DNA of 13,592 nucleotides from Candidatus Heimdallarchaeota archaeon (lineage in GTDB: Archaea > Asgardarchaeota > Heimdallarchaeia > Heimdallarchaeales > Heimdallarchaeaceae). The notes under the pieces are model-generated. The model searched no databases, was not told where the DNA came from, and saw nothing but the letters and a program-made list of their open reading frames with translations. Each line of letters starts with the position of its first letter. Position 1 is the stretch's first letter. The translations under genes were made by a program, and so were the position numbers. The stretch lies in the NCBI GenBank assembly GCA_030668825.1, contig DAOVET010000071.1, positions 1 through 13,592 on the forward strand, given 5' to 3'. This document shows, piece after piece, positions 1-12,550 of this stretch.

Positions 1-2401
1 CATCAGAGGTTTTACAAGTGCAGTTTTCCAGAATTTTCAGTGAACGGTTGAAACCTTCTTCCAGTTTATCATATAGAAGTTTGGATAATCCACTTCCACC
101 TTTTGCACCATCATATACAAAAATTGCTCCAGATTTACCCATGGATATTCCTCCAATCTCAGAACTTCCTCCTCCAGTTAACATTGAACTAGATTCAATC
201 ACAACATGTTCAACTGCGTGAAAGGTTCCATTTAACAAAACATCTTCTGGTAAGTATGCAAAAGTGTTTAGAAGTTCTATTGGTTTTGGCATTGTGAACA
301 TGAATCCTTTTGTTCGAAAAGAGTAAATTATGGGCTCATCAAAGGTTTTAGTTTCAAGAAGTTTGTTTGTAAAGATATCATTGACATTATAACCAGTAAC
401 TTGTTCAGTTATTTGTAAATCACAATAAATGACCTCTGTTCCAAGAACCTTTTTTCTTTCATTCACGACCAATATAGATGGAATTGCATATCGATTAGCC
501 GTTGTTTTCTGATTTATAGGTGGTATAGGCTGTAAGAGTATTTCTCCACCACCAAATCGATTATCATACTTGAAAGTTGAAGATCTGTAATGTTTACCTC
601 CATGAAGATATATTGCCCCAAGATGTAATTCTCTAGCGGCCATAGGCATAGATCTTTCCCCTAATCTTTTACCAGTTTTATCTTTGAGCAATAAAGTATC
701 CCCAATCCCCCTTATTGAATAAGCTCGTAATAGTCGCAATATATCGGTTCTAGATTTAGCTTTATATCCCCCATCTGCTGTTTTCCGCAGTTTTTCTTCG
801 CTCTCCAGTTGCGTTAACATAGTTTGGTGTTCAGTGAATTCTTCTTGTTCTATAGGTTTTTCCAGGACAGCAGCTAAAAGCTGATAATAGGAAACTATTT
901 CATTTTTGGGTTCAACATATCCTTGTCTGATGTCAGCAAAGTATGTTTCTGGGTAAACTGAATAGAATGTACTGATGGGATCATCATTTCTTAGAATCAA
1001 AGAACCAATTGATTCTTGTCCTTTTCTTCCAGCTCTTCCCAATCTTTGTATAAAACTTGTAATATTGACAATAGAGGAAACTACACCATCAACATCACCA
1101 ATGTCAATCCCTAATTCTAGTGTTGGTGTAGACACTAACGCGTCTAAATCACCTTCCCTAAATCTCTGCTCTACTCTGTTTCTATAATCTCTTGTTAAAC
1201 CAGCTCTGTGAACAGCTGATCTTATTTTTGCAGAACGTAAAAGTAAATTTATTATCTCAGCGTTCTTGTGACTGTTCTGAAAACAGAGTGTCTTATGACC
1301 TGAGGTTACCAGTTGCCTTGTTATTTCAGAGGTTATAGTATATTGACTGACATTCCAAGGGATGACAATCAATAAATGGGTTGGTGCTTTTCTAGCTTCT
1401 TTAACTATAATTGCTGTTACTTCTCTATCAAAAAGCTGAGAAGAAAAGTCAAGTGCATTTCCAATTGTTGCAGAAGATCCGATAAATTGGATTTTATTAG
1501 ATACAAGTCGTTGAAGTCGTTTTAAAATGAAATAGAGATTAGTTCCGAAAGCACCTATTGCGACATGAATTTCATCAATAATTATGAATTTGAGATTTCT
1601 AATTATTGAAACAAAAGGTAAATTTCTCATATGATAATGTAGCATATCAGGATTTGTGATAAGAATATCAGGAGGAGATTCAAGTATCTTTTCTCTCTTT
1701 GTTTTAGGAGTATCACCGTCATATACTTCGCAAGTAATTCCTAAAGTATCTCCATATTTCTTGATTTTCTTCTCTTGATCTTTGGCTAGAGCTTTTGTTG
1801 GATATATGATAAGAGCAGATAAACCTCTTCTCTGGAGTGGATGGGAAGCTTCATTCCAAATTTGTGTTAAAACTGGTAATATAAAAGCTTCAGTTTTTCC
1901 TGTCCCTGTGGGGGCTACAATAACAATGTCCGCTCCTTTGTCAATTAAATTAAAAGCTTCTTGTTGAAATTCATATAGAAAGGGCAGATTATTTTTACTT
2001 AGAAAGGAACTCAATTTTTCTGGAAATTGTATCTTTGTTGAGCTTTGTTTGGGGGATTTTTGTTCCAGAAAGCCATAGTAAATTAACTCAATATCGGGGT
2101 TGTTAATTATGTTCTTAATTGCGTAAGGTATTTTTTGTGGATCATATCCTCCATCTTGTATTAGTTTTCTCTTCTCCTCCTTTGTTTTCCTTGGAACAGG
2201 GAAGAGATTTTCCTCTTTTTTCTTTTTTAATTGCTTTGCTAATTCACGTCGAGATTGCTTAGAATCTACTAATTGTTTGTATGCTTCAGTTTTATCAGCA
2301 ACAAAAATTGTTTCTTTAAGACCGCAAAAACTACATTGAAACAGAAAGGAACTTGATTGTTTTGTTACATTCAAATCTTTTTTGCAGTCTGGACATTTCA
2401 T
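1..2401 (-). CDS. DEAD/DEAH-box SF2 helicase, Hrq1/MrfA-like, with C-terminal DUF1998 Zn-binding domain and N-terminal zinc ribbon (3' end truncated by window edge)
   Basis: Manual translation from ATG at 2401, preceded by GAGGT RBS: MKCPDCKK...QCSFCG; motif I VAPTGTGKTEAF (~1885-1918); IYPTKALA; motif II IDEIH (~1565-1579); SAT; HRAGL; motif VI QRLGRAGR (~1025-1048); YDGAKGGSG and LENCTCKTSD at the edge. The start, motif I and edge codons share one frame. Absent from the ORF track because there is no stop inside the window. Confidence 0.93.
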   Translation of the reverse strand, partial: MKCPDCKKDLNVTKQSSSFLFQCSFCGLKETIFVADKTEAYKQLVDSKQSRRELAKQLKKKKEENLFPVPRKTKEEKRKLIQDGGYDPQKIPYAIKNIINNPDIELIYYGFLEQKSPKQSSTKIQFPEKLSSFLSKNNLPFLYEFQQEAFNLIDKGADIVIVAPTGTGKTEAFILPVLTQIWNEASHPLQRRGLSALIIYPTKALAKDQEKKIKKYGDTLGITCEVYDGDTPKTKREKILESPPDILITNPDMLHYHMRNLPFVSIIRNLKFIIIDEIHVAIGAFGTNLYFILKRLQRLVSNKIQFIGSSATIGNALDFSSQLFDREVTAIIVKEARKAPTHLLIVIPWNVSQYTITSEITRQLVTSGHKTLCFQNSHKNAEIINLLLRSAKIRSAVHRAGLTRDYRNRVEQRFREGDLDALVSTPTLELGIDIGDVDGVVSSIVNITSFIQRLGRAGRKGQESIGSLILRNDDPISTFYSVYPETYFADIRQGYVEPKNEIVSYYQLLAAVLEKPIEQEEFTEHQTMLTQLESEEKLRKTADGGYKAKSRTDILRLLRAYSIRGIGDTLLLKDKTGKRLGERSMPMAARELHLGAIYLHGGKHYRSSTFKYDNRFGGGEILLQPIPPINQKTTANRYAIPSILVVNERKKVLGTEVIYCDLQITEQVTGYNVNDIFTNKLLETKTFDEPIIYSFRTKGFMFTMPKPIELLNTFAYLPEDVLLNGTFHAVEHVVIESSSMLTGGGSSEIGGISMGKSGAIFVYDGAKGGSGLSKLLYDKLEEGFNRSLKILENCTCKTSD

Positions 2402-2538
2402 TGAAATACCTCTTTATTTTGTTATCATTATTATAATTAATAAAGTTGCAGAGATTGTCTGTTATTAAAACCTCTTAAAGGATATTTAATGGATAGGTTT
2501 AAAATAAGTTATTTGTGTATCGGCTCAAGGTAAGAAAA
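2402..2538. promoter_or_regulatory. Divergent promoter region between the helicase and the small ORF
   Basis: Very AT-rich intergenic gap between head-to-head genes, with several TATA-like boxes (TTATAATTAA, TTATTAAA, TTTAAAAT). Exact boxes cannot be resolved. Confidence 0.45.
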
Positions 2539-2796
2539 ATGGCTTCTCAAAGAGTATGTAAATGGAAGCAAGGGATGACTGGAAGAAGTCCTGAAGGAAA
2601 GGTACAACAAGTAAATTTTCCCTGCAGATATCCCACGGAAGAACTCACAACAGATTTATGTACATTGTGTCTTCTGGGTGATTTGTTTGCAATGTTCTAT
2701 GCACAATCAATGAGTTTCAAGAAAAGTTCAGATATGCAGGAAGAAATTATGGCTTTTCTAAAAAGCTTCACTTCAGAAGATTTTGATATGAGATAA
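2539..2796 (+). CDS. Small hypothetical protein (85 aa) with four Cys, possible zinc-binding
   Basis: ATG at 2539 is preceded by AAGGTAAG and preferred over the GTG at 2515. The ORF fills the gap between two minus-strand genes. Pattern C-x21-C-x11-CxxC followed by a helical tail. Confidence 0.7.
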   Translation: MASQRVCKWKQGMTGRSPEGKVQQVNFPCRYPTEELTTDLCTLCLLGDLFAMFYAQSMSFKKSSDMQEEIMAFLKSFTSEDFDMR

Positions 2797-2836
2797 TTGC
2801 ACATCTAATTTCATCGTTACTGAATCATAATTCATG

Positions 2837-5800
2837 TTATTTTCTAAAGCGTGAGATAACAATCACAATCACTAAAACGCCGGCTAATGCTCCAGTACTT
2901 ATGAGAGGGTAAAGCCAAGGGAGTGACGAGAAAGTAATTTCATCATATTTCTCTGAAAATGGTAGATTTATTTTAATAACTGGTGAGAATGAAATCCATA
3001 GAAACTTATTTTGATCACTTTCACTCACATTAGCAGGAGAATTCTTAATTGAGAGGTTCATTGTATCTTGTGTATTGCTATCAGAATGGGTTTCAGTTGA
3101 TTGAAAATCTGTTGGACGTATTTCGTAAATTGAATCATAATTAATTATAATTGGGGGTATAATGAAATCTTCTGCTAAATCAGAAAGTTGAATTTTAATA
3201 ACTATTCTATCTCCTGGATGAAGGGTTGTATTTGCATAACTAATCAGAAAGAAATTAGCTCTTGATGTAATCACTGGAGAAAGTATTTGTTCTTCACCAT
3301 TTTCTAAAATTAGTGTGCAGTTTATTTCATCAATTTCAGCTGTCTCCTTACCAAACATTTGAGAAATTCTCACATCAGTTGGAGAAAGACCAGTATTTTT
3401 GATTTCATATTCAATATACATTGATCGATCTTTTTCATGCAATGTATAGTCTGATGTCACAACAATTTCTGGAACAGGAAAACTTGGTCTTAACACATTT
3501 TCGAGTGAAATTGGTGGAAATAGTATTCCAAACGTTAGTGTGGAGGTTATTATATTCGCAGTTTCACCACCGTAAATCCAAGGAATCGTAGCATCAATCC
3601 AAGGAATATAAACTTCCTCCGCGGGTTGATTTAAATCAGAAATGAAGCTAATTACTGCTACATATGTATTCAAACCTATATAGCTGTTTGCCTTTATTGA
3701 AAACTCTTGGTTTATTGTCTCCCCAACTTCAATTGCATCAATATCAAAGGACTTCACTACAATCATGTCAGTTGGTAACCACAAGTAATTCAATCTCAGA
3801 TTTACAATATCAACATGGACATTGTAAGCTCCAGTGGTTCCAAAATTATTGATATCAAGGGTGAAGGGGATGTTCTCTCCCACTCTGTAAGTTGTCCTGT
3901 TTGTAATTAGTATGCTTTCAAGAACTGCTTCATCATCACCTAATTGAAAATTCAAACCATTGGTTAATCCGTAATAACCTCTTCCAGAATAATCAAAATA
4001 CTGATAGCGACTGCCTATTGAAACAAAAGAATCAGTTATTGAATCATAGAAACTCAAGAATCTACCTGCACTATTTAAACTGGTGAATAGAGCAAGCATT
4101 AATGTCTTGTAATCGCTTTCAACTGTTTGAAAAACAGTGTAATCTTCTAGACCGTTTTCAGCTGGAAAAATTGAAAAGAACCCGAACCTGTCTGCAGAAG
4201 TAGGTATATCTGTAATTGACCAGAAAGCTTCATAACTCTCATTTACACCAAGTGGTGGAATTTCACATTCTAAGTATCCTCCAAACATAATAGAATTTTT
4301 GTAACTGAAATCTGTAGAACTGAATTGGAAGAGTGTTTTGTTCCTGTAGAATTCATTGAAAACAATGTTGTAAGCATCATTTACAGCAAGTTGCAATTGT
4401 TCATTTATTATCGGTTCAAAATAGGTCCAATTATTTGCTATTTCTGATATAGTATATAAATCCAATATTGGGGAAATTCTTGCCAATACAGCAATGTACA
4501 AATCCTCCGATATACCGTTTGTAGTTTCAATATTTACATACTCATTAATCTCTAAAGTTGTGTTATCCAACCATCTTTCAAGAGAAAGAGTAGTAGTATT
4601 TTCATACCAACCGCGAATATCAAGAATGAAAAATTCAAAAATATAACTAGCATACTGAATATCAAGTGTTATCCCTGAGTTGAACAACTCATTAATTTGC
4701 AAATCATCATGTAGAACTGGTACCTCAAGACCTTCTTGAATAAACATTTCCAAATCCCCAGGGATCGGGAAAATGATAGTTGTGTTATAAGCTGTGTCAG
4801 TTCCAGTATTACTAATATTATAAGTCATATTGAGAATTCCATCATTCTCAAGTAAGAAATCGGAATATGAATTTGATACTGAAATCCTCGGAAAGACAAA
4901 TTCATCATAAGAGAAAGGATAATAGATTATTTCAGGATTAAAAGAATCATAAACAGTTGTACTGAAAAATTTGAGAACCCATTCAAAAGAACCAGTTATT
5001 GAGCCCCCTACATTATTAGGTGGGGGAGACACACTAGTTACATCAGCCAAAAACGGCATATTGAATGAAAATTTTGATACAAACGCATTAGCCTTAGGAA
5101 TTAAAGGGGAGTTTAATGATAAGCTTAAATCAAAAATTCTCTGATTACCAATGGTCTGAATTTTATTTTCTTGTGCAACAACTGCTGTCCTAATGATTCG
5201 TGTAATGATTCCAAATCTTTTCACCAGAGAAAAACCAAAAGCATAAACTGTAGGTGACTCGGTTAGCATGTCTTCTATTATACCTACAGAGTTACCATTC
5301 TCTTCTTGATAGTCAGATTTGAAAATTACATCAAATAAAATTAATGCTTGTGAATATGAAATTGGGGCCACTAGATATAAAACAGTATCAACGAGAGAGG
5401 GATTTTGAATATTGAAAACACCCAAACTTACATTACAAAATTGTTGAACAACACTATTAACAAATTGATATATTGCCTTAATACGCTCGTAGTTTTGTGT
5501 TCTCAGTGTAAGTTTGATTACTAAACCATCTGGATACTTCCAGAGAGGATTAGTCCAGATTTTTGAATATGAAGATTGATTTGCTACAATGAAATCGATT
5601 TGATTGACATATGTGAGTTCGGATCTAGAAAGGTCAAGAGGTGTTCGAAGTAAACCCCCATCTAGTTCCAGAGAAGCTATAACAGAATCGTCTTTTCCAA
5701 CAATAATATCAAATTTTTCTTGAAAAAGAAGTAATTGTTCTTCAGCCATTACAGAGGGGGAAGTTGTATTAGAACTTGCAGAATAAGCACTTCCAATAAG

Positions 5801-5908
5801 AATAGGTGGAGATACTATAGAAGAGAGGAATAAAATGAGTACCACAAGAATTTTATGAAATGGTGGGGCTATTCTATTCTTTAAATGTTGGAGTTTTTTG
5901 GTACTCAT
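2837..5908 (-). CDS. Large secreted, C-terminally membrane-anchored surface (S-layer-like) protein with CARDB/DUF11-like Ig folds
   Basis: 1023-1024 aa ORF with GAGGGG RBS. Basic plus hydrophobic N-terminal signal; three Ig-type strands (YNISNTG, LDINNFG, YEIKNTG); many N-x-S/T sequons; C-terminal TM helix ending SRFRK. Confidence 0.8.
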   Translation of the reverse strand: MSTKKLQHLKNRIAPPFHKILVVLILFLSSIVSPPILIGSAYSASSNTTSPSVMAEEQLLLFQEKFDIIVGKDDSVIASLELDGGLLRTPLDLSRSELTYVNQIDFIVANQSSYSKIWTNPLWKYPDGLVIKLTLRTQNYERIKAIYQFVNSVVQQFCNVSLGVFNIQNPSLVDTVLYLVAPISYSQALILFDVIFKSDYQEENGNSVGIIEDMLTESPTVYAFGFSLVKRFGIITRIIRTAVVAQENKIQTIGNQRIFDLSLSLNSPLIPKANAFVSKFSFNMPFLADVTSVSPPPNNVGGSITGSFEWVLKFFSTTVYDSFNPEIIYYPFSYDEFVFPRISVSNSYSDFLLENDGILNMTYNISNTGTDTAYNTTIIFPIPGDLEMFIQEGLEVPVLHDDLQINELFNSGITLDIQYASYIFEFFILDIRGWYENTTTLSLERWLDNTTLEINEYVNIETTNGISEDLYIAVLARISPILDLYTISEIANNWTYFEPIINEQLQLAVNDAYNIVFNEFYRNKTLFQFSSTDFSYKNSIMFGGYLECEIPPLGVNESYEAFWSITDIPTSADRFGFFSIFPAENGLEDYTVFQTVESDYKTLMLALFTSLNSAGRFLSFYDSITDSFVSIGSRYQYFDYSGRGYYGLTNGLNFQLGDDEAVLESILITNRTTYRVGENIPFTLDINNFGTTGAYNVHVDIVNLRLNYLWLPTDMIVVKSFDIDAIEVGETINQEFSIKANSYIGLNTYVAVISFISDLNQPAEEVYIPWIDATIPWIYGGETANIITSTLTFGILFPPISLENVLRPSFPVPEIVVTSDYTLHEKDRSMYIEYEIKNTGLSPTDVRISQMFGKETAEIDEINCTLILENGEEQILSPVITSRANFFLISYANTTLHPGDRIVIKIQLSDLAEDFIIPPIIINYDSIYEIRPTDFQSTETHSDSNTQDTMNLSIKNSPANVSESDQNKFLWISFSPVIKINLPFSEKYDEITFSSLPWLYPLISTGALAGVLVIVIVISRFRK

Positions 5909-6005
5909 CAAACATTCCCCTCAATATTTCTTATGTTCACGTTTATTGATAAGCATTTATTTCTATAAATTTTAAAGTATTCAGTTCTAATTTTCTCGAA
6001 CTTCG

Positions 6006-6851
6006 TCATATTGAGACCTCCAGCAGGTTCATTATAATGAACGATAAGGCATTAATCATAAAAACTACAAATAGAGCAGTCACTCCTGCCTTTTCAAATC
6101 TTATTTCTTTAATAACTACTATGGCTTCTAATAGAAAACCGACAAAAAATAACTGAAAAATGAAAATCAAAATGATAAACCAGACATCAAGCTCAAAAAG
6201 TGAGGTAGGGTATGTAAAGTCAAAAACAAACGATAAAATCACAGTAAGTAAAATCATTGGGATTTGCACTACAATAACGCTTTGTAGTAGAGCCAATTTC
6301 CCTGAAGTTTTACGAAATAGTAGAAAAAGTAAAGCCTCACAAATCAAATAAGTAGCAACTGTGGTAATTATAAAGATAAAGGGGGCAACGAAATCAGGTG
6401 TTATGAATGAGGGGAATAAAAATATAGGAACAGCTGATATGAAATATGTTGAAACTTGCAATCCTATGAATAGAAGGAGGGTAAAACCAAGTGATCTAAT
6501 TGGATCATTTTTTATAAATTTAAAAACTGGACGAAGGAAAATATAGTGTAAAAAGGCAAATTTTCCATAAGCTACTTGGCTCGGTGCTGAAACGTCCAAC
6601 TCATCCTCAATCAATGCATAAGAGCGTTTTCCTTTTTCTGTTAAGAAATATCGTTTTGTAGAATCTTGTGATATTAGAAATCCTAGAGTATAAAGATGAT
6701 GATAAAGTGTTCCCACTTTCATTTGAAAGCGATCTTGAATCTCTGTAAAGGAAGCAATCCTCTTTTCTCCAATAAAGCAAAGCAAATCTCTTCTAATTTG
6801 ATTGGAGAGAGCTTTCCAAATTTCAGGAGAAGATTGTTTCTTAGAATTCAT
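6006..6851 (-). CDS. ArsR-like winged helix-turn-helix regulator fused to a multi-pass membrane domain
   Basis: N-terminal WKALSNQIRRDLL...SFTEI...GTLYHHL...YFLTEKG is an ArsR/wHTH signature. The C-terminal ~165 aa contain about 5-6 hydrophobic helices. Confidence 0.85.
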   Translation of the reverse strand: MNSKKQSSPEIWKALSNQIRRDLLCFIGEKRIASFTEIQDRFQMKVGTLYHHLYTLGFLISQDSTKRYFLTEKGKRSYALIEDELDVSAPSQVAYGKFAFLHYIFLRPVFKFIKNDPIRSLGFTLLLFIGLQVSTYFISAVPIFLFPSFITPDFVAPFIFIITTVATYLICEALLFLLFRKTSGKLALLQSVIVVQIPMILLTVILSFVFDFTYPTSLFELDVWFIILIFIFQLFFVGFLLEAIVVIKEIRFEKAGVTALFVVFMINALSFIIMNLLEVSI

Positions 6852-6902
6852 GTAACCTAATAAGTAAAATGGTCAATCTATAATTTAAAACTTAGCTTAT
6901 TA

Positions 6903-8027
6903 TTAATGACTCTCAATTATGTTGTATAGAGTATTTCGCTGAACGGGAATCCTGTTCGCATCGCGTATGAGTTCTACAAATTCTTCAATGCTTTTTTCTT
7001 CTCCAAAAGTACCTCCTGCACTTTTGGTGATTTCTTCTGTGAAAATGGTTCCACCTAGATCATTCACTCCAGAACCTAATATTACTTGGGAAAACTTTGG
7101 ACCCAACTTCACCCATGAAACTTGAAGATTAGGGATTACCTCACCTAAATACAGTCTTGCAGTACTGAATAATGCTAAGTCGTGCATTCCCGTACTACTT
7201 GGACGTGCTCCAAAGTATTTGTAGAGAACAGTATTTGTATGTACAAATGGAAGAGGAACGAATTCAGTAAACCCATTTGAGATTGATTGTATGTGTTTTA
7301 TTATTGCTAAATGTTCTGCTTCATCAGCAAGAGATTCTATGTGTCCATACATTATTGTAGAAGTTGATTTTAAACCACTTGAATGACCTGTTAATACGAT
7401 GTTTACCCATTGTTCTGTTGATATTTTATCGGGACAGATAATCTTTCTAACATCATCTACAAGAATTTCTGCAGCTGTTCCTGGAAAGGAGTCAAGTCCA
7501 TGATTCGCTAGATCTTTGAATATATCCTCGACACTTTCTTCAGATATTTGAGACAAATAAGCTATTTCTGAAGGTGAAAAACCATGGATGTGAATATCAT
7601 GAGATACAGATTTAATTGTTTTAAGAAGTCCAACATAATAATCATAATTTAGCTTGGGGTCTAGTCCACCCTGTATGCAAATTTCTGTGCACCCGCGAGC
7701 TACTGCTTTTTCAGCTTCTATTTTGATATCATCAAGAGACATTCTAGAGTTAGCAATTTCCTCTGTTTCACCTCTTAAACTATAAGAACAGAATCTACAT
7801 GTTCCCAAACAATGACGAGAAAAATTGATATTTTGATTAACCACAAATGAAACATTATCCCCAACTTGTTGAAACCTCAAATCATCAGCTAAAGAGGTTT
7901 GAATCCATAGTTCTTTTCCTCTTTTTTTTAGCATTTTTGTGAGATCAGTAATTTCTTCTTGATGTAATTCTTTGAATGTAGCTAAATCACATACAAGATC
8001 AATTTTTGGAGGTGCTAAATTTTTCAT
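6903..8027 (-). CDS. cofH: FO synthase subunit 2 (5-amino-6-(D-ribitylamino)uracil--L-tyrosine 4-hydroxyphenyl transferase), radical SAM
   Basis: NINFSRHCLGTCRFC radical-SAM motif; TEICIQGGL, PGTAAEIL, STSTIMYGHIE, FTEFVPLPFVH, NLQVSWVKLG, NDLGGT..EEITKSAG and QRNTLY; overlaps cofG. Confidence 0.93.
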   Translation of the reverse strand: MKNLAPPKIDLVCDLATFKELHQEEITDLTKMLKKRGKELWIQTSLADDLRFQQVGDNVSFVVNQNINFSRHCLGTCRFCSYSLRGETEEIANSRMSLDDIKIEAEKAVARGCTEICIQGGLDPKLNYDYYVGLLKTIKSVSHDIHIHGFSPSEIAYLSQISEESVEDIFKDLANHGLDSFPGTAAEILVDDVRKIICPDKISTEQWVNIVLTGHSSGLKSTSTIMYGHIESLADEAEHLAIIKHIQSISNGFTEFVPLPFVHTNTVLYKYFGARPSSTGMHDLALFSTARLYLGEVIPNLQVSWVKLGPKFSQVILGSGVNDLGGTIFTEEITKSAGGTFGEEKSIEEFVELIRDANRIPVQRNTLYNIIESH

Positions 8028-9099
8028 CTACCTTGAATTCCTCTATTATTCCGCGCATTCTAGTGTTTAAATACTTTTCATATTGAGGATAAACTGGAAG
8101 TCTCTCTTTTAGCGAAAATCCTGCTAAATTAAGTTCTTTAACCAAGTATTGTTCTTCTTGCCATATCATGTTTGGATTAATATAATCGATAGTGATTGGA
8201 GAGATTCCCCCCACATCGTTTGCTCCATGATTGATAGCGGTAATAATTCTCTCTCGATTAAGATTGGGTGGGACTTGAATACTCACTTCAGCTGGAAGAA
8301 TTTCGCGTGCCAAAGCAATGGTTATTAGAACATCTTCTTCCCTAGGGGCAGGATGGTCTGCCATAGGAGTATTTTCTTGAGGGTTGAAATTTTGAACAAT
8401 TACTTCTTGAATATGATTATATTCCCTACTTATATCTGCAATTATTTGGAGAGATTCTATCCTCTCTTGCCATGTTTCTCCAATTCCGATAAGAATTCCC
8501 GTTGTAAATGGAATCTTTAGTTTTCCTGCATTTTCTATTGTATTAATTCGTAAGGTCGGATTCTTACCTGGGGAATTTTGGTGAGGTTTCCCCTCATCCA
8601 TCAATCTTAAGCTGTGTGTTTCCAGCATCAAACCCATGCTCGCGTTTGTTTGTTTTAATAAGTTTAAATCTGAAGAAGACAATACGCCTAAATTGGAGTG
8701 AGGTAAAAGATGTTGTTCCAAAGCTACTCCACACAAATAATTAACATATTCTACAGTAGTTTGAAATTTTAATGCTTTAAGAAATTTCAATGCTGATTGA
8801 TATTTTTCCTCTGGTTTCTCACCTAGGGTGATTAAAACTTCTTTACAATCCTCAGCTTTAGCTTTCATTATTATTTCATTGTAATCTTTAGGAAGAATCC
8901 AAGTATTGGGATCATCTGAAACAAAACTACAATAATCACAACGATTACGACATTGATGAGTTACTGGGACAAAGACATTTCGGGAAAATGTAATATGTTT
9001 GCCATATTTTCTTTCTCTCTTGGTTTCAGCTTTACTTATTAATTCATCTCGATCATTTTTGAGCAAATGTAAAAACTCATCAAAGCTCATCTTACTCAT
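7999..9099 (-). CDS. cofG: FO synthase subunit 1 (7,8-didemethyl-8-hydroxy-5-deazariboflavin synthase), radical SAM
   Basis: ITFSRNVFVPVTHQCRNRCDYC; LLPHSNLG, SMGLMLE, PFTTGILIGIGE, HIQEVIVQNF, IQVPPNL, DVGGISPITIDYINP and ERLPVYP are CofG signatures. Confidence 0.95.
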   Translation of the reverse strand: MSKMSFDEFLHLLKNDRDELISKAETKRERKYGKHITFSRNVFVPVTHQCRNRCDYCSFVSDDPNTWILPKDYNEIIMKAKAEDCKEVLITLGEKPEEKYQSALKFLKALKFQTTVEYVNYLCGVALEQHLLPHSNLGVLSSSDLNLLKQTNASMGLMLETHSLRLMDEGKPHQNSPGKNPTLRINTIENAGKLKIPFTTGILIGIGETWQERIESLQIIADISREYNHIQEVIVQNFNPQENTPMADHPAPREEDVLITIALAREILPAEVSIQVPPNLNRERIITAINHGANDVGGISPITIDYINPNMIWQEEQYLVKELNLAGFSLKERLPVYPQYEKYLNTRMRGIIEEFKVDEKFSTSKN

Positions 9100-9772
9100 C
9101 TTTCTTTAGTTTTAGAGTAACTAGATAGCCCTCATGTAATTTATTCACAGTCTGTATTTCACAGTTAATTGCATCTCCAATATTGTGAATAGCTTCTTGT
9201 TCGAACAAAAGTTTTGCATTCTTTCCTCCAACAAAAACTGGGGCATAAAAAATGTGCATGATGTCCACCAATCTATTGGTTAAGAACTGTGTAATCACAG
9301 TTGAACCTCCTTCTACCAACAACTTGTTAACCCCAAGTTGAGTTTTCAAGATTTTCAACACATTATCCAAATTCAGATATCTTTTATTTTTTTCGAATTC
9401 CACGGAAACTACTTTTGCCCCGAGTTTTCTAATCTCATCTTGTTTACTTGCTGAACATTCCTTGGATGTAATAATAATTGAGGGTAATCTTTCTTGGTCT
9501 TGAAGAACTTTTGCTGTCAACGGAATTCTGCACCTAGTATCCAAAATTGTCCTTAATGGAGCTGGTTCTTTAGGTTTGATATATCTAACAGATAACAAAG
9601 GGTCATCCTTGAGAATTGTATTTACACCAACAAGTATTGCATCAACAGAGTTTCTTAATTCATGCACTCTTACCCAATCTTCAGTGGTTGATAAAATCAG
9701 AGCCCCTTCACTGGAAGCAATTGCACCATCTAAAGAACTAGCAACATTTACAATTACTTCAGGTTTTTCCAC
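9092..9772 (-). CDS. arfC: 2,5-diamino-6-ribosylamino-4(3H)-pyrimidinone 5'-phosphate reductase (stand-alone RibD C-terminal / Rib7-type)
   Basis: ASSLDGAIA, VHELRNSVDAILVGVNTILKDDPLL and LLVEGG motifs. No N-terminal CDA-type deaminase domain. GTG start with GGTGA RBS at 9777-9781. Confidence 0.9.
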   Translation of the reverse strand: MEKPEVIVNVASSLDGAIASSEGALILSTTEDWVRVHELRNSVDAILVGVNTILKDDPLLSVRYIKPKEPAPLRTILDTRCRIPLTAKVLQDQERLPSIIITSKECSASKQDEIRKLGAKVVSVEFEKNKRYLNLDNVLKILKTQLGVNKLLVEGGSTVITQFLTNRLVDIMHIFYAPVFVGGKNAKLLFEQEAIHNIGDAINCEIQTVNKLHEGYLVTLKLKKDE

Positions 9773-10905
9773 TTTATCACCTTTCCTTTATACATTTGAA
9801 GACGTATATCTGATTGGTCTGCTCGCATAGTAATTGCAGAATAAACATCTTTAGAGAATTTTAGGTTGTTACTTTCTAAATCTATTGCTAAAAGGTCTCC
9901 ACTATAACCAACTTCAATTTGACCAATTTTCTTTTTAACTATTAAACCAGGATTAACTGTTACTGATTTTAAAACTTCCTTTGGTGAAAGATTTTGGTTA
10001 TTACTTCGGGCATTATAAAGCGTGAAAGCCATGAGTCTAAATGGATCAGGATTACAGAAAAGTACATTATCGGTTCCAAGACCAAGCAGAATTTCATTTT
10101 TTGATATAAGTTCCAAAGGTGGAAACTTCAATCCATTATACAAACTTGATATAGGACAACAAATAATGCTAATTTTGTTTTTACTTAGAAGTTTAAGTTC
10201 TTCTTCCTTTGAATAAGTTGCATGAACAATATAGTCAAAAGAATCGCAGTTTCCAATGAATTCTATATCGCGTTTCCCATATTTTGAGATTGATTCTGTA
10301 ATAATCTCTTCTGATTCAGAAGCATGTATTGCAACAAGTTTAGATGAATTATTCTCTTTTAACTTTGAAATGAGTTTCAAATCATCTTGAGTAACAGAAA
10401 AAATATCTCGGATGCCTAAACCATCACTTACCTCAATAATTTTTTCTAATGTATCTTTCTTTGTCTGACGACCTAAAATTATTCCTCGAATAGAGTATCT
10501 TTCTAGTTCATCTTTTAATAACTCTATTCCCTCAATTCCTTCTTCTCGGAAATCTATGAAAGAGGTATAACCATTTTGTACAAGCAATTCAAGGGAATTC
10601 TTTATGCTTTTAATTTTCTCCTCTTTAGAGCTAGTTCTGAATTTAGTATGTTTAACCCCTTTTGGACCTACAGCATCTTCTAGATTTAATCCATAAGTTT
10701 GATCCTTGAGGAAAGCATCTCCAACATGTGTATGACCATTGACGAATCCTGGAATAATAACATAAGAAGAAGGTAAAACATATTTAGTAGGTTTCCGTTC
10801 CTTGGAAATATTGATAATTGTTCCTTCACCATCTATCTGGATACTGACTCCTTGAACAAATGTCAAATCAGAGCCGATTAATGCATTTCCACGTACGGTA
10901 ACCAT
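9754..10905 (-). CDS. Metal-dependent amidohydrolase, deaminase-type (COG0402-like)
   Basis: PGFVNGHTHVGD (HxH), AIHASE (HxxE), IVHAT and LGLGTDN motifs, plus C-terminal GQIEVGYSGDL. Likely start is the ATG at 10905 (MVTVRG) rather than 10971. Confidence 0.9.
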   Translation of the reverse strand: MVTVRGNALIGSDLTFVQGVSIQIDGEGTIINISKERKPTKYVLPSSYVIIPGFVNGHTHVGDAFLKDQTYGLNLEDAVGPKGVKHTKFRTSSKEEKIKSIKNSLELLVQNGYTSFIDFREEGIEGIELLKDELERYSIRGIILGRQTKKDTLEKIIEVSDGLGIRDIFSVTQDDLKLISKLKENNSSKLVAIHASESEEIITESISKYGKRDIEFIGNCDSFDYIVHATYSKEEELKLLSKNKISIICCPISSLYNGLKFPPLELISKNEILLGLGTDNVLFCNPDPFRLMAFTLYNARSNNQNLSPKEVLKSVTVNPGLIVKKKIGQIEVGYSGDLLAIDLESNNLKFSKDVYSAITMRADQSDIRLQMYKGKVIKWKNLK

Positions 10906-10929
10906 TTTCAAGGGAGCGAGTGTATTCCA

Positions 10930-10946
10930 AGCTAATAAAGTCTTTG
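10930..10946 (-). promoter_or_regulatory. Putative archaeal BRE/TATA promoter of the amidohydrolase-arfC-cofG-cofH operon
   Basis: Minus strand reads CAAAGAC-TTTATTA, with the TATA-like box 28-34 nt upstream of the ATG at 10905. Confidence 0.4.
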
Positions 10947-10955
10947 TAGATATTA

Positions 10956-10967
10956 GAAAAAGAAGAA
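10956..10967 (-). terminator. Possible oligo-T terminator downstream of tnpB/omega-RNA
   Basis: TTCTTCTTTTTC on the minus strand, 12-25 nt beyond the inferred element right end. Confidence 0.3.
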
Positions 10968-11130
10968 TCACTAAACTTATGATGAGTTGTTGTCATCTTG
11001 TCGCTTGAGACAAGAGGGTGAGTGTCTTTCTTAGAGCTTATGGAGCAGTTCTATACTCACTCTAAGCGGATACATCACGTATCCTCCTACCCCGTTCACA
11101 CTACGTGGAGGTAGTGCTTTCGGATCGCTT
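10960..11130 (-). ncRNA. Putative TnpB omega-RNA (reRNA) scaffold plus 3' guide; boundaries approximate
   Basis: Dense hairpins overlap the tnpB 3' end: GGATAC/GTATCC (11068-11084), GTGAGT/ACTCAC (11018-11060) and TCTTGTC/GACAAGA (10996-11015). The position matches the known location of TnpB guide RNAs. Confidence 0.6.
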
Positions 11131-12287
11131 TTGATTAGTATATTAAATGCAGCATTGACATCAGCGTTGATGAGATGACCTTGCGCAGACCTGAACAAAC
11201 CTCGAGGTATTCTTCGCCCAGCATACTTCTGTCTCTTCTCTGGTAACTCGTTATCGAGAAAACTACATTTGGAGGTATATTTTTCAGGGATGAGGTCAAC
11301 GTTTATCCCTTTCTCTGCAGCCTTGTACTTCAAGATGGTGATAATTCTCATAAATGGGATAGCCACAAACATTTGGGTAATCTTCTTCCAGAAATGCATC
11401 CCTTGTTTCCACTTCTTATTGTAGCCGATAATTACCTCATGGAGGTTTCGTTCCGCCCACAGATTTACTAAGTAGTTAGTTAGTTTGTGAATAGCGTCTT
11501 TTAATTTCTTCCTCCATTTCTCTCGAAGTTTGTAATATGCTGGACCATAAACTAATCTGTTATTGACTTTCAGTTGGTTTCTTTGTTGTTGGACATATAG
11601 TTCCCGTAATTGTGTCTGTTTTTTCAAATAGTACTGAGTAATTGATTTTATTCCTTTCCCTGCATCCTTGATAACAATTGGTTGATTTCCAAGGTTATCC
11701 ACAAAGGTCACAAGGTTGACCATCCCTAAATCGATAGCTCCTTTTCTCTTGGGTCGTTTTCTGAGTTTGGGTAAAGTCTTCTGGTAGACTAGTTCAAGTG
11801 TATATCCTACTCTTCTTGGTACGACTCTCACTTCTCTTAATTTTGCTTGGGAAGTTAATCTGGTTCTGTAATTGAACCTTACCTTTTTAGGAAGAATTAA
11901 CCATCCATTGACAATCTTAGCTTGTTGATTAGAGAAAATCGCTACAACCTCTCCATCTTTAACCTTGTAATTTGGGGAATTAGGAATGGCGAAAAATGCT
12001 TCAGGGTTAGTCTTCCACTCTTTTCTTGCTTGAAAGTAACTTTTCCAATTCCTGCAAAGAAGTTTAATCGTATGTTGAGCAGTGTGAACAGGAAGAACTT
12101 TATAGCACTCCTCTTGGATGAGTAGAGTATTAAGGTCGTAGTAAAAGAGGAGTTTGTTGTCCTTTTTCAACGAATTCTTAATTAGAAAATTTGCGCGATT
12201 ATAGAGATTTTTGACTTGATGGCAAAGCTTACTTAATATTGGATGATAGTTTACTTCTATACATTCAACTCGAAGAACTTTTGGCAT
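11031..12287 (-). CDS. tnpB: RNA-guided endonuclease TnpB, RuvC-II-rearranged clade
   Basis: KNLYNRANF N-terminus; REVRVVP wedge strand; RuvC-I GAIDLG; IIGYNKKWKQ; PEKYTSKCSFLD; RGLFRS; RuvC-III INADVNAAFNI. Confidence 0.93.
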   Translation of the reverse strand: MPKVLRVECIEVNYHPILSKLCHQVKNLYNRANFLIKNSLKKDNKLLFYYDLNTLLIQEECYKVLPVHTAQHTIKLLCRNWKSYFQARKEWKTNPEAFFAIPNSPNYKVKDGEVVAIFSNQQAKIVNGWLILPKKVRFNYRTRLTSQAKLREVRVVPRRVGYTLELVYQKTLPKLRKRPKRKGAIDLGMVNLVTFVDNLGNQPIVIKDAGKGIKSITQYYLKKQTQLRELYVQQQRNQLKVNNRLVYGPAYYKLREKWRKKLKDAIHKLTNYLVNLWAERNLHEVIIGYNKKWKQGMHFWKKITQMFVAIPFMRIITILKYKAAEKGINVDLIPEKYTSKCSFLDNELPEKRQKYAGRRIPRGLFRSAQGHLINADVNAAFNILIKSDPKALPPRSVNGVGGYVMYPLRVSIELLHKL

Positions 12288-12308
12288 CGTAAATTTAACT
12301 AGAGTTTA

Positions 12309-12316
12309 GTATAAAA
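12309..12316 (-). promoter_or_regulatory. Putative TATA box for a leaderless tnpB transcript
   Basis: TTTTATAC on the minus strand 22-29 nt upstream of the tnpB ATG; no obvious RBS. Confidence 0.4.
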
Positions 12317-12550
12317 ACCCCTGAAATACTCGTAAAACAGTACACTTTAAGCGTATGTTTCATCTTCTTAAGGTGACAAAGTTACAATATCTTTTATAAT
12401 TTCTGTGAAAAGTTAATTTGGATACTAAGGTCGGTTGTCGATCCTGAAACCTAGCTGGTTTATCACTAATAATTAGACTTATAATTCAACCTTTTGAAAT
12501 TAACCTCAAGCACAATTATGTGAATATTCAGATGATTCCTATTGGCTTTT

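Follow-up and report, generated by a model that had tools for sequence, protein, structure and literature searches.

The contig DAOVET010000071.1 of a Candidatus Heimdallarchaeota archaeon (assembly GCA_030668825.1) carries on the minus strand four overlapping genes, the first of which encodes a deaminase-type amidohydrolase, denoted AH hereafter. The window analysed is the entire contig (13,592 bp; C85), one of the 138 contigs of a 2.76-Mb assembly with 33% G+C, 90.6% completeness and 4.7% contamination; the nearest protein homologues bear the name Heimdallarchaeota or Heimdallarchaeaceae in their source records. AH (9754..10905, 383 aa; PF01979, NF005552) falls in the COG0402/PRK07213 group of deaminases, and its predicted role is that of pyrimidine C2 deaminase, or 'PyrD'. 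It is followed by a gene encoding a stand-alone pyrimidine reductase similar to ArfC/Rib7 and made of the RibD_C domain only (9092..9772, 226 aa, GTG start; PF01872, TIGR00227), by cofG (7999..9099; NF004884, TIGR03550) and by cofH (6903..8027; TIGR03551, PF19288). CofG is the radical S-adenosylmethionine (SAM) subunit of the Fo (7,8-didemethyl-8-hydroxy-5-deazariboflavin) synthase, and CofH is the 5-amino-6-(D-ribitylamino)uracil:tyrosine 4-hydroxyphenyl transferase.

Direct reading of the sequence places the AH stop codon (TAA, 9756-9754) within the reductase gene, which starts at a GTG (9772-9770), and the two genes overlap by 19 nt. The overlaps between arfC and cofG and between cofG and cofH measure 8 and 29 nt, respectively. 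An earlier note on this DNA had described the first of these overlaps and the one between reductase and cofG, and both stand. The AH open reading frame (ORF) reaches a GTG at 10971 (9754..10971). The start has been set at the ATG at 10905, because homologues and the NF005552 alignment start there: a length of 383 aa is shared by 45 of the 59 nearest homologues in the list, and the alignment begins at this codon, which is residue 23 of the long ORF. ArfC matches PF01872 (156 bits) and TIGR00227, or ribD_Cterm (173 bits, over the cut-off); it scores 171 bits with TIGR01508, or rib_reduct_arch, under the cut-off of 186. The cytidine-deaminase domain PF00383 was matched by a Pfam scan in neither AH nor ArfC, and the claim that the stand-alone reductase lacks the RibD deaminase domain is thus borne out. 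CofG (NF004884, 426 bits; TIGR03550, 404 bits) and CofH (TIGR03551, 423 bits) score over the cut-offs of their models, and the CofH_C domain is present in the latter. The order AH-arfC-cofG-cofH is not fortuitous, because it recurs across many archaeal lineages.

AH fits the PF01979 Amidohydro_1 family (113 bits; cut-off 25). Its best NCBIfam model is NF005552 (PRK07213, 'chlorohydrolase'), with 261 bits, the next family scoring 85 bits. NF005552 is also the best model for all ten relatives tested from other archaeal groups (235-446 bits), six of which pass its curated cut-off (Methanobacteria 439-446, Bathyarchaeia 348, Nitrosopumilus 336, Jordarchaeia 318, and 301 for the L072 protein described below), and four of which fail it (L017 287, Loki 262, Altiarchaeota 261, and 235 for Heimdall L014). 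AH is 31-35% identical to the members found in Nitrososphaerota. A search started from a Methanobacteriaceae member returned only Methanobacteria-like proteins among the best 120 of 3465 matches. Homologues carry no annotation more precise than 'chlorohydrolase' or 'amidohydrolase family protein'.

The residues H58 and H60 (HxH), H194 and E197 (HxxE), H228 and D279 (in a GTDN tract) are invariant in all 17 family members aligned, in agreement with the deaminase signature noted earlier. In this superfamily the HxH motif is located on strand 1, HxxE on strand 5, the isolated histidine on strand 6 and the aspartate on strand 8, and the AH motifs align with those of the solved COG0402 enzymes 3lnp, 4v1x and 4dyk. 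Other residues invariant in the same 17 sequences are specific to the family, namely D63, K85, D118, R120-E121 (making up a 'DFRE' motif with D118) and R146. These may bind the ribityl phosphate moiety, the basic residues K85, R120 and R146 being candidate phosphate binders. An AlphaFold (AF2) model of AH was obtained with a predicted local distance difference test score (pLDDT) of 95 and a predicted template-modelling score (pTM) of 0.93. The best Foldseek matches of the model all belong to the COG0402 group (query-normalised TM-score 0.80-0.89, 13-20% identity), whose hallmark is a (beta/alpha)8 barrel with an N/C-terminal beta-sandwich, and the nearest solved folds are 3lnp, AtzA, methylthioadenosine (MTA)/adenosine deaminases, TM0936, isocytosine deaminase and guanine deaminase. 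No solved structure was found for any close relative of AH. Fusions of AH to ArfC were also sought. A fused protein of about 610 aa would fall within the near-length class of homologues, and PF01872 was found on none of the best 120 of 512 such proteins; the absence of fusions among longer proteins (742-2115 aa) at E<=1e-20 is weak evidence. The predicted AH-ArfC complex, attempted with two alignments, scored 0.00 against a mark of 0.32, which is no answer, and was used neither way.

The association of AH with genes of riboflavin (rib) and F420 (cof) synthesis was monitored in a scan using one genome per species. The best 80 loci, out of 563 AH relatives confirmed by tblastn, were analysed, and rib genes were sought by blastp within 10 kb of AH by using as queries Pfam-verified proteins from one operon. 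The loci span Heimdall-, Loki-, Hel-, Hod-, Hermod-, Odin-, Jord-, Frey-, Njord- and Wukongarchaeota, and include many Nitrososphaerota, as well as Bathyarchaeia, Methanobacteriaceae and Altiarchaeota. Linkage to rib or cof genes had been set beforehand as one of the points on which the deaminase proposal could fall. The arfC gene is located directly downstream of AH in 70 of the 80 loci, in the same orientation and in most cases overlapping it, and is followed in turn by cofG in 31; at least one rib or cof gene is found within 10 kb in 75. Within this distance ArfA and RibB were each found in 38 loci, RibH in 37, CofG in 32, CofH in 31, RibC in nine and ArfB in four, the last two counts being probably too low, since each gene was searched with a single query sequence.

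Two types of operon can be distinguished. The first, ribB-(ribC)-ribH-arfA-AH-arfC(-arfB), is found in Nitrososphaerota and in Jord-, Frey-, Hel- and Hodarchaeota; the second, AH-arfC-cofG-cofH, is the one present in the window, and is found in Heimdall-, Loki-, Hermod- and Odinarchaeota. One locus of the first type (L104) features seven genes, in the order ribB, ribC, ribH, arfA, AH, arfC and arfB. AH is the only one of these lacking an assigned step, because every other gene of the operon has a Pfam-confirmed role in riboflavin synthesis (DHBP_synthase, two DMRL_synthase, GCH_III and Creatininase/ArfB among the domains found). Despite the kinship among loci discussed below, the linkage of AH to arfC spans very distant lineages and both operon types. 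Archaeal-type AH genes were also found in two records deposited as bacterial metagenome-assembled genomes (L039 and L072; Burkholderiales and Deferrimicrobium), and in L072 AH is found with arfC and a divergent cofG-cofH pair. Mis-binning or gene transfer may account for both.

The distribution of AH was analysed in 101 Asgard genomes, including that of the window, with a profile threshold of E<=1e-40. The AH profile matched 45 genomes. A strong ArfC was identified in 42, CofG in 39 and RibH in 23, the genomes with RibB being the same as those with RibH. Either CofG or RibH is encoded by 44 genomes, and AH is found at threshold in 42 of them; the remaining two (G036 and G052) carry a diverged PRK07213-type gene, scoring 139-150 bits, beside ribH. 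A clear AH orthologue was found in none of the 57 genomes lacking both CofG and RibH, where only three marginal matches (E 1e-41 to 1e-42, frames of 440-451 aa) were detected, which are taken for paralogues. Single families fit the same scheme. AH, ArfC, RibH and RibB are found in all three genomes of family f14, and CofG in none; AH is kept in CofG-only genomes in f1 (8/9) and f12 (12/14), families in which CofG is found throughout (9/9 and 14/14) and RibH/RibB are found in one of nine and two of 14 genomes, respectively. An enzyme making the shared intermediate 5-amino-6-ribitylaminouracil, before the branch point, would be expected to show this distribution. The phyletic profiling proposed in the earlier note therefore gives, in Asgard archaea, an AH that follows the demand for this compound; the Thermoproteota sample described below is less clean. 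In a second draw from the phylum of the window, AH was found in 58 of 121 genomes.

Gene contents departing from these patterns were also observed in Asgard genomes. Two members of the class of the window, G091 (C2:274953-275510) and G095 (C189:27135-27698), retain ArfC (L101 and L102; TIGR01508, 165 bits) and RibA, and none of AH, CofG, RibH and RibB was found in them; their ArfC may be an orphan reductase or the remnant of a pathway. AH and ArfC are present in 12 of 14 f12 and three of three f14 genomes (e.g. G008, G040, G010, G021) in which neither GTP cyclohydrolase II nor III was matched, and the M. acetivorans control similarly gave no match to either family. Strong homologues of GTP cyclohydrolase II (200-226 bits) are encoded by 13 of 15 f9 and by three of three f16 genomes, in which no AH, strong ArfC, CofG, RibH or RibB was found, and these RibA-like enzymes may serve another role. 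The full-length AH matches in G026, G069, G003, G017 and G019 were each reported with one in-frame stop codon (TGA, TAG or TAA), compatible alike with overlapping gene ends or an internal position.

The genome hosting the window has a RibA gene (GTP cyclohydrolase II) at C119:3339-3824, and no GCH_III was found in it. The pathway thus starts in this genome with RibA, and not with ArfA and ArfB, the genes listed for profiling by the earlier note. The window ArfC is the single RibD_C protein of the genome. The earlier note had also asked whether a canonical RibD deaminase is encoded elsewhere. None was found by searching for PF00383, the sole match being a gene similar to ComEB/dCMP deaminase (G000:C54:604-960; L001 559-960) and interrupted by an in-frame TAA, which may be a pseudogene or may result from a sequencing error. 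The genome also encodes CofD (C61), two CofE (C3 and C14), an archaeal riboflavin kinase (C89:15976-16341) and two COG0402 paralogues of AH (C90 and C91).

Lumazine synthase (ribH), DHBP synthase (ribB) and a Lum_binding riboflavin synthase were not found in this genome. The same absence was observed in all four of the remaining genomes of the genus and in eight of nine of the family, including the one-contig genome G069, so that an assembly gap is unlikely. The exception is the closed genome G026, where a bacterial-type RibBA fusion (DHBP synthase and GTP cyclohydrolase II in one 400-aa frame) is adjacent to RibH (194 bits; C1:242281-243929). The cluster looks horizontally acquired, and both genes are missing in the sister genome G069.

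The genome of the window is therefore predicted to belong to a riboflavin auxotroph making F420. Given an archaeal riboflavin kinase and no match to ribB, ribH or riboflavin synthase, the lineage would salvage riboflavin, and would keep the pyrimidine branch for Fo/F420 alone. We lean towards a broader statement, by which in the Heimdallarchaeial family of the window and in most of the f12 genomes sampled the AH and ArfC branch would be uncoupled from riboflavin synthesis and retained as a dedicated AH-arfC-cofG-cofH deazaflavin operon; riboflavin would be imported, Fo/F420 would be made de novo, and AH would be needed for F420 alone. The association of AH with cofG and cofH in the absence of riboflavin-specific genes is an argument for a step before the branch point, and for use in F420 synthesis only. 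The window adds in this respect independent Asgard support for the role of AH, and lineages making only F420 would, if so interpreted correctly, be a clean natural setting for assigning the archaeal deaminase, free of riboflavin genes.

Gene content, gene overlaps, fold, catalytic motifs, neighbourhood and phyletic pattern all provide genomic support to the role of AH in this branch. On these grounds AH is very probably the pyrimidine C2 deaminase of the precursor branch shared by riboflavin and F420, a protein of unrelated fold that would do the job of the RibD N-terminal domain. Its substrate and activity, and the order of reduction and deamination, are what we infer from the data as follows. 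RibA, encoded elsewhere in the genome, would yield 2,5-diamino-6-ribosylamino-4(3H)-pyrimidinone 5'-phosphate, and the ArfC-like reductase would convert the ribosyl side chain to ribityl. AH would then swap by hydrolysis the 2-amino group for an oxo group at C2 of 2,5-diamino-6-ribitylamino-4(3H)-pyrimidinone 5'-phosphate. Reduction is set before deamination as reported for archaea, and this order is here a proposal. Some phosphatase would release 5-amino-6-ribitylaminouracil, which CofH and CofG would condense with tyrosine to give Fo, and F420 would be formed from Fo by CofD and CofE. With their overlapping ends, the four genes are co-transcribed, and their translation is probably coupled.

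In mononuclear COG0402 deaminases a metal-bound hydroxide attacks the amidine carbon, and protons are transferred by the glutamate of HxxE and by the histidine on strand 6. AH would similarly use a metal-activated water, with H58, H60, H194 and D279 binding the metal and E197 and H228 moving the protons, following the scheme of guanine deaminase and its COG0402 relatives. The ring attacked by guanine and isocytosine deaminases, a 2-amino-4-oxopyrimidine, is found again in the proposed substrate, the product of RibA and ArfC; hydrolytic deamination at C2 is proposed for AH because these enzymes carry it out on the same ring.

Several results weigh against this assignment, or against its generality. 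Both the 80 loci and the genomes sampled hold many close relatives, and counts overstate independence. No rib or cof gene was found within 10 kb of AH in five loci (L021, L023, L033, and the Methanobacteria loci L037 and L051). AH misses the curated cut-off of NF005552 (261 against 294 bits), a model that appears centred on methanogens. In a sample of 121 Thermoproteota, searched with a threshold of E<=1e-35, AH was found in 29 genomes and RibH in 42, and only 25 have both. No AH was thus found at this threshold in 17 of the 42 RibH genomes, and none of the 17 has a RibD-type deaminase domain either. All 17 give weaker PRK07213 matches, and two of these matches sit in rib clusters (G269, and G245 with the order arfC-arfA-ribB-ribC-ribH-AH). 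Three others inspected are proteins of 349-364 aa that are not linked to rib genes, and score 118-128 bits with the family profile, no better than the paralogues from the genome of the window (108-116 bits). A FastTree phylogeny was built from 36 sequences, including the window AH, 25 of the 80 locus proteins picked to span taxa, eight diverged copies and, as outgroup, the two paralogues of the window genome. The 349-364-aa proteins group in it with the rib-linked G245 and G269 copies with a support of 0.93, the outgroup consisting of two sequences only. These Thermoproteota proteins may be either orthologues or paralogues of AH, so that the AH family is not shown to be universal among archaeal riboflavin producers. 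Finally, no biochemical or genetic test of an archaeal PyrD was found in the literature searched, as represented by the sections available.

The four Thermoproteota having AH without RibH carry arfC directly downstream of it in three cases, and about 0.9 kb downstream in the fourth (G226). Two further results favour a deaminase role. NF005552 at E<=1e-35 matches all four archaeal controls (M. jannaschii, H. volcanii, S. acidocaldarius and M. acetivorans; the genes matched were not named), and gave no match in ten bacterial control genomes. Searching 25 further archaeal genomes with TIGR00326, the RibD N-terminal half was matched only in G103, by a stand-alone protein (39 bits, 163 aa); in the others only the reductase half was matched.

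The presence of two radical-SAM genes in the operon, with which AH is co-transcribed, suggests a different explanation, by which AH would be a nucleoside deaminase of the DadD/MtaD type clearing 5'-deoxyadenosine, the inhibitory by-product of CofG and CofH. The COG0402 fold is the same, and enzymes acting on MTA, S-adenosylhomocysteine (SAH) or adenosine are among the nearest structures. The DadD model NF005557, however, scores 71.5 bits on AH, against a cut-off of 522 and the 261 bits of NF005552, and the conserved partner in 70 of the 80 loci is ArfC, rather than CofG or CofH. About 38 loci are rib operons lacking a radical-SAM gene, the three f14 genomes keep AH without CofG, and the C90 and C91 paralogues could do the job in the genome of the window. 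All this makes the explanation very unlikely. The neighbourhood and the phyletic pattern would be equally accounted for if AH were the 5-amino-6-ribitylaminouracil 5'-phosphate phosphatase (EC 3.1.3.104), the other gap before the branch point. Phosphoesterases are included in the amidohydrolase superfamily. Yet both the HxH/HxxE/H/D signature and the nearest folds point to mononuclear deaminases rather than to phosphoesterases, and the deaminase would stay missing, no RibD domain of the cytidine-deaminase type being present. A phosphatase role is for these reasons extremely unlikely, even though the corresponding step is also reported as an archaeal 'pathway gap' in the available part of PMC8305020.

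The vague annotation of the family and the five loci devoid of rib and cof neighbours would agree with a deaminase or hydrolase acting on another substrate, such as guanine, a pterin or a triazine-like compound, the linkage to arfC being historical and not functional. It is hard to reconcile this with an adjacency to arfC holding over very distant archaeal lineages and in two operon types, or with the finding that AH tracks CofG/RibH in 44 of 44 Asgard genomes (two with diverged copies), with no clear orthologue in the other 57; such a role is accordingly improbable. The possibility that AH is a formamide hydrolase substituting for ArfB was also considered, and was rejected. A creatininase-type ArfB co-occurs with AH in the same operon, and AH is present in the genome of the window, which uses RibA and needs no deformylase.

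The assignment of AH as C2 deaminase, and thus as a non-orthologous replacement of the RibD domain, is the central claim of the earlier note. It finds support in the neighbourhood and in the phyletic pattern; the idea itself is not new. In the excerpts available of Rodionova et al. (2017, PMC5397151), orthologues of RibD-type deaminases are described as apparently missing in Archaea, and a candidate archaeal 'PyrD' is attributed to a 2010 proposal (Osterman, Overbeek, Rodionov) based on frequent clustering and co-occurrence with rib genes; the candidate is there said to be untested as of 2017. HVO_2483 is listed as a 'prediction' in the corresponding part of Pfeiffer and Dyall-Smith (2021, PMC8305020), being 34% identical to MJ0699, for which the function is 'also predicted'. 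The name of the PyrD SEED role also appears in print. The published description fits the AH family, because AH is the unassigned gene of the L104 operon and NF005552 matches M. jannaschii and H. volcanii. MJ0699 and HVO_2483 are taken as putative amidohydrolases of this family on the result obtained with the control genomes, not on a comparison of sequences, and this too weighs against the assignment. The window contributes a new and diverged Asgard member to a family that had already been predicted in print.

More recent reviews and papers name no archaeal deaminase in the sections available (PMC13151069, PMC13028884, PMC9478397). The AH-arfC-cofG-cofH operon, as seen in lineages devoid of riboflavin-specific genes, is an addition for which no description was found, and may be new; in its available part, a review on F420 covers the Asgard F420 genes, and not this arrangement (PMC8498797). 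C2 deamination is among the last steps of archaeal riboflavin/F420 synthesis without a proven enzyme. Were the assignment correct, the pathway would offer a clear example of non-orthologous displacement, with a triosephosphate isomerase (TIM)-barrel metallo-deaminase replacing a domain of the cytidine-deaminase fold, and thousands of archaeal proteins now annotated as 'chlorohydrolase' or 'amidohydrolase family protein' could be given a correct name.

The sequences flanking the operon deserve a short description. The intergenic stretch 5' of AH (10906..10983, minus strand) probably includes the operon promoter, and its conservation with the closest relative extends to 10983. Positions 1-10983 of the window are collinear with this relative (L008; 93.2% identity), and collinearity stops exactly at 10983, so that the adjoining element is an insertion or a rearrangement beside the presumed promoter. 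This element, which starts where collinearity ends, at least 78 nt upstream of the operon start codon, corresponds to 10984-12400 and includes a TnpB ORF of the IS200/IS605 type (11031..12287, minus strand; NF040570, 132 bits). Nine more copies of it, 74-80% identical, are found on eight other contigs of the genome. Three genes, all on the minus strand, are located 3' of cofH. They encode a 281-aa protein (6006-6851) with a weak ArsR/SdpR-like match to an N-terminal helix-turn-helix and with hydrophobic stretches, a 1024-aa protein (2837-5911) with one hydrophobic stretch at the N-terminal and one at the C-terminal end, and a DEAD/DEAH helicase with a MrfA Zn-binding domain (2-2401). Heimdall loci similarly show two same-strand genes after cofH. 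A scan of the window for sigma-70 promoters and terminators was disregarded, since the model is not applicable to an archaeon.

AH can be compared to four known systems. It has in common with COG0402 deaminases (guanine deaminase, isocytosine deaminase Vcz, the TM0936 MTA/SAH deaminase and AtzA) both fold and motifs, and guanine and isocytosine deaminases attack the 2-amino group of a 4-oxopyrimidine ring, as proposed for AH; identity to the solved structures is however restricted to 13-20%, and the family-specific invariant residues of AH are not seen in the structures aligned. DadD (5'-deoxyadenosine deaminase) belongs to the same superfamily, and a link to radical-SAM enzymes is conceivable; AH differs from it in falling far below the NF005557 cut-off, and in having as conserved neighbour ArfC, not a radical-SAM gene. 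The published PyrD candidate shares with AH the proposed reaction and the kind of evidence, i.e. clustering and co-occurrence with rib genes, whereas the AH of the window is a diverged Heimdallarchaeial member, whose operon is of the AH-arfC-cofG-cofH type rather than a rib operon. The RibD N-terminal domain of bacteria and plants and the fungal Rib2 catalyse the same net C2 deamination of a GTP-derived diaminopyrimidinone that is proposed for AH, and are also paired with a RibD_C-type reductase, as AH is with ArfC; Rib2 moreover acts after reduction, like the archaeal route. RibD and Rib2 have the cytidine-deaminase fold (PF00383, with zinc-binding H/CxE and PCxxC motifs), to which the (beta/alpha)8 amidohydrolase fold of AH is unrelated, and AH is separate from the reductase, the fused form being absent among the 120 near-length homologues listed and in the search of longer proteins. 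AH would thus act like the RibD deaminase, yet it stands outside the RibD/Rib2 family.

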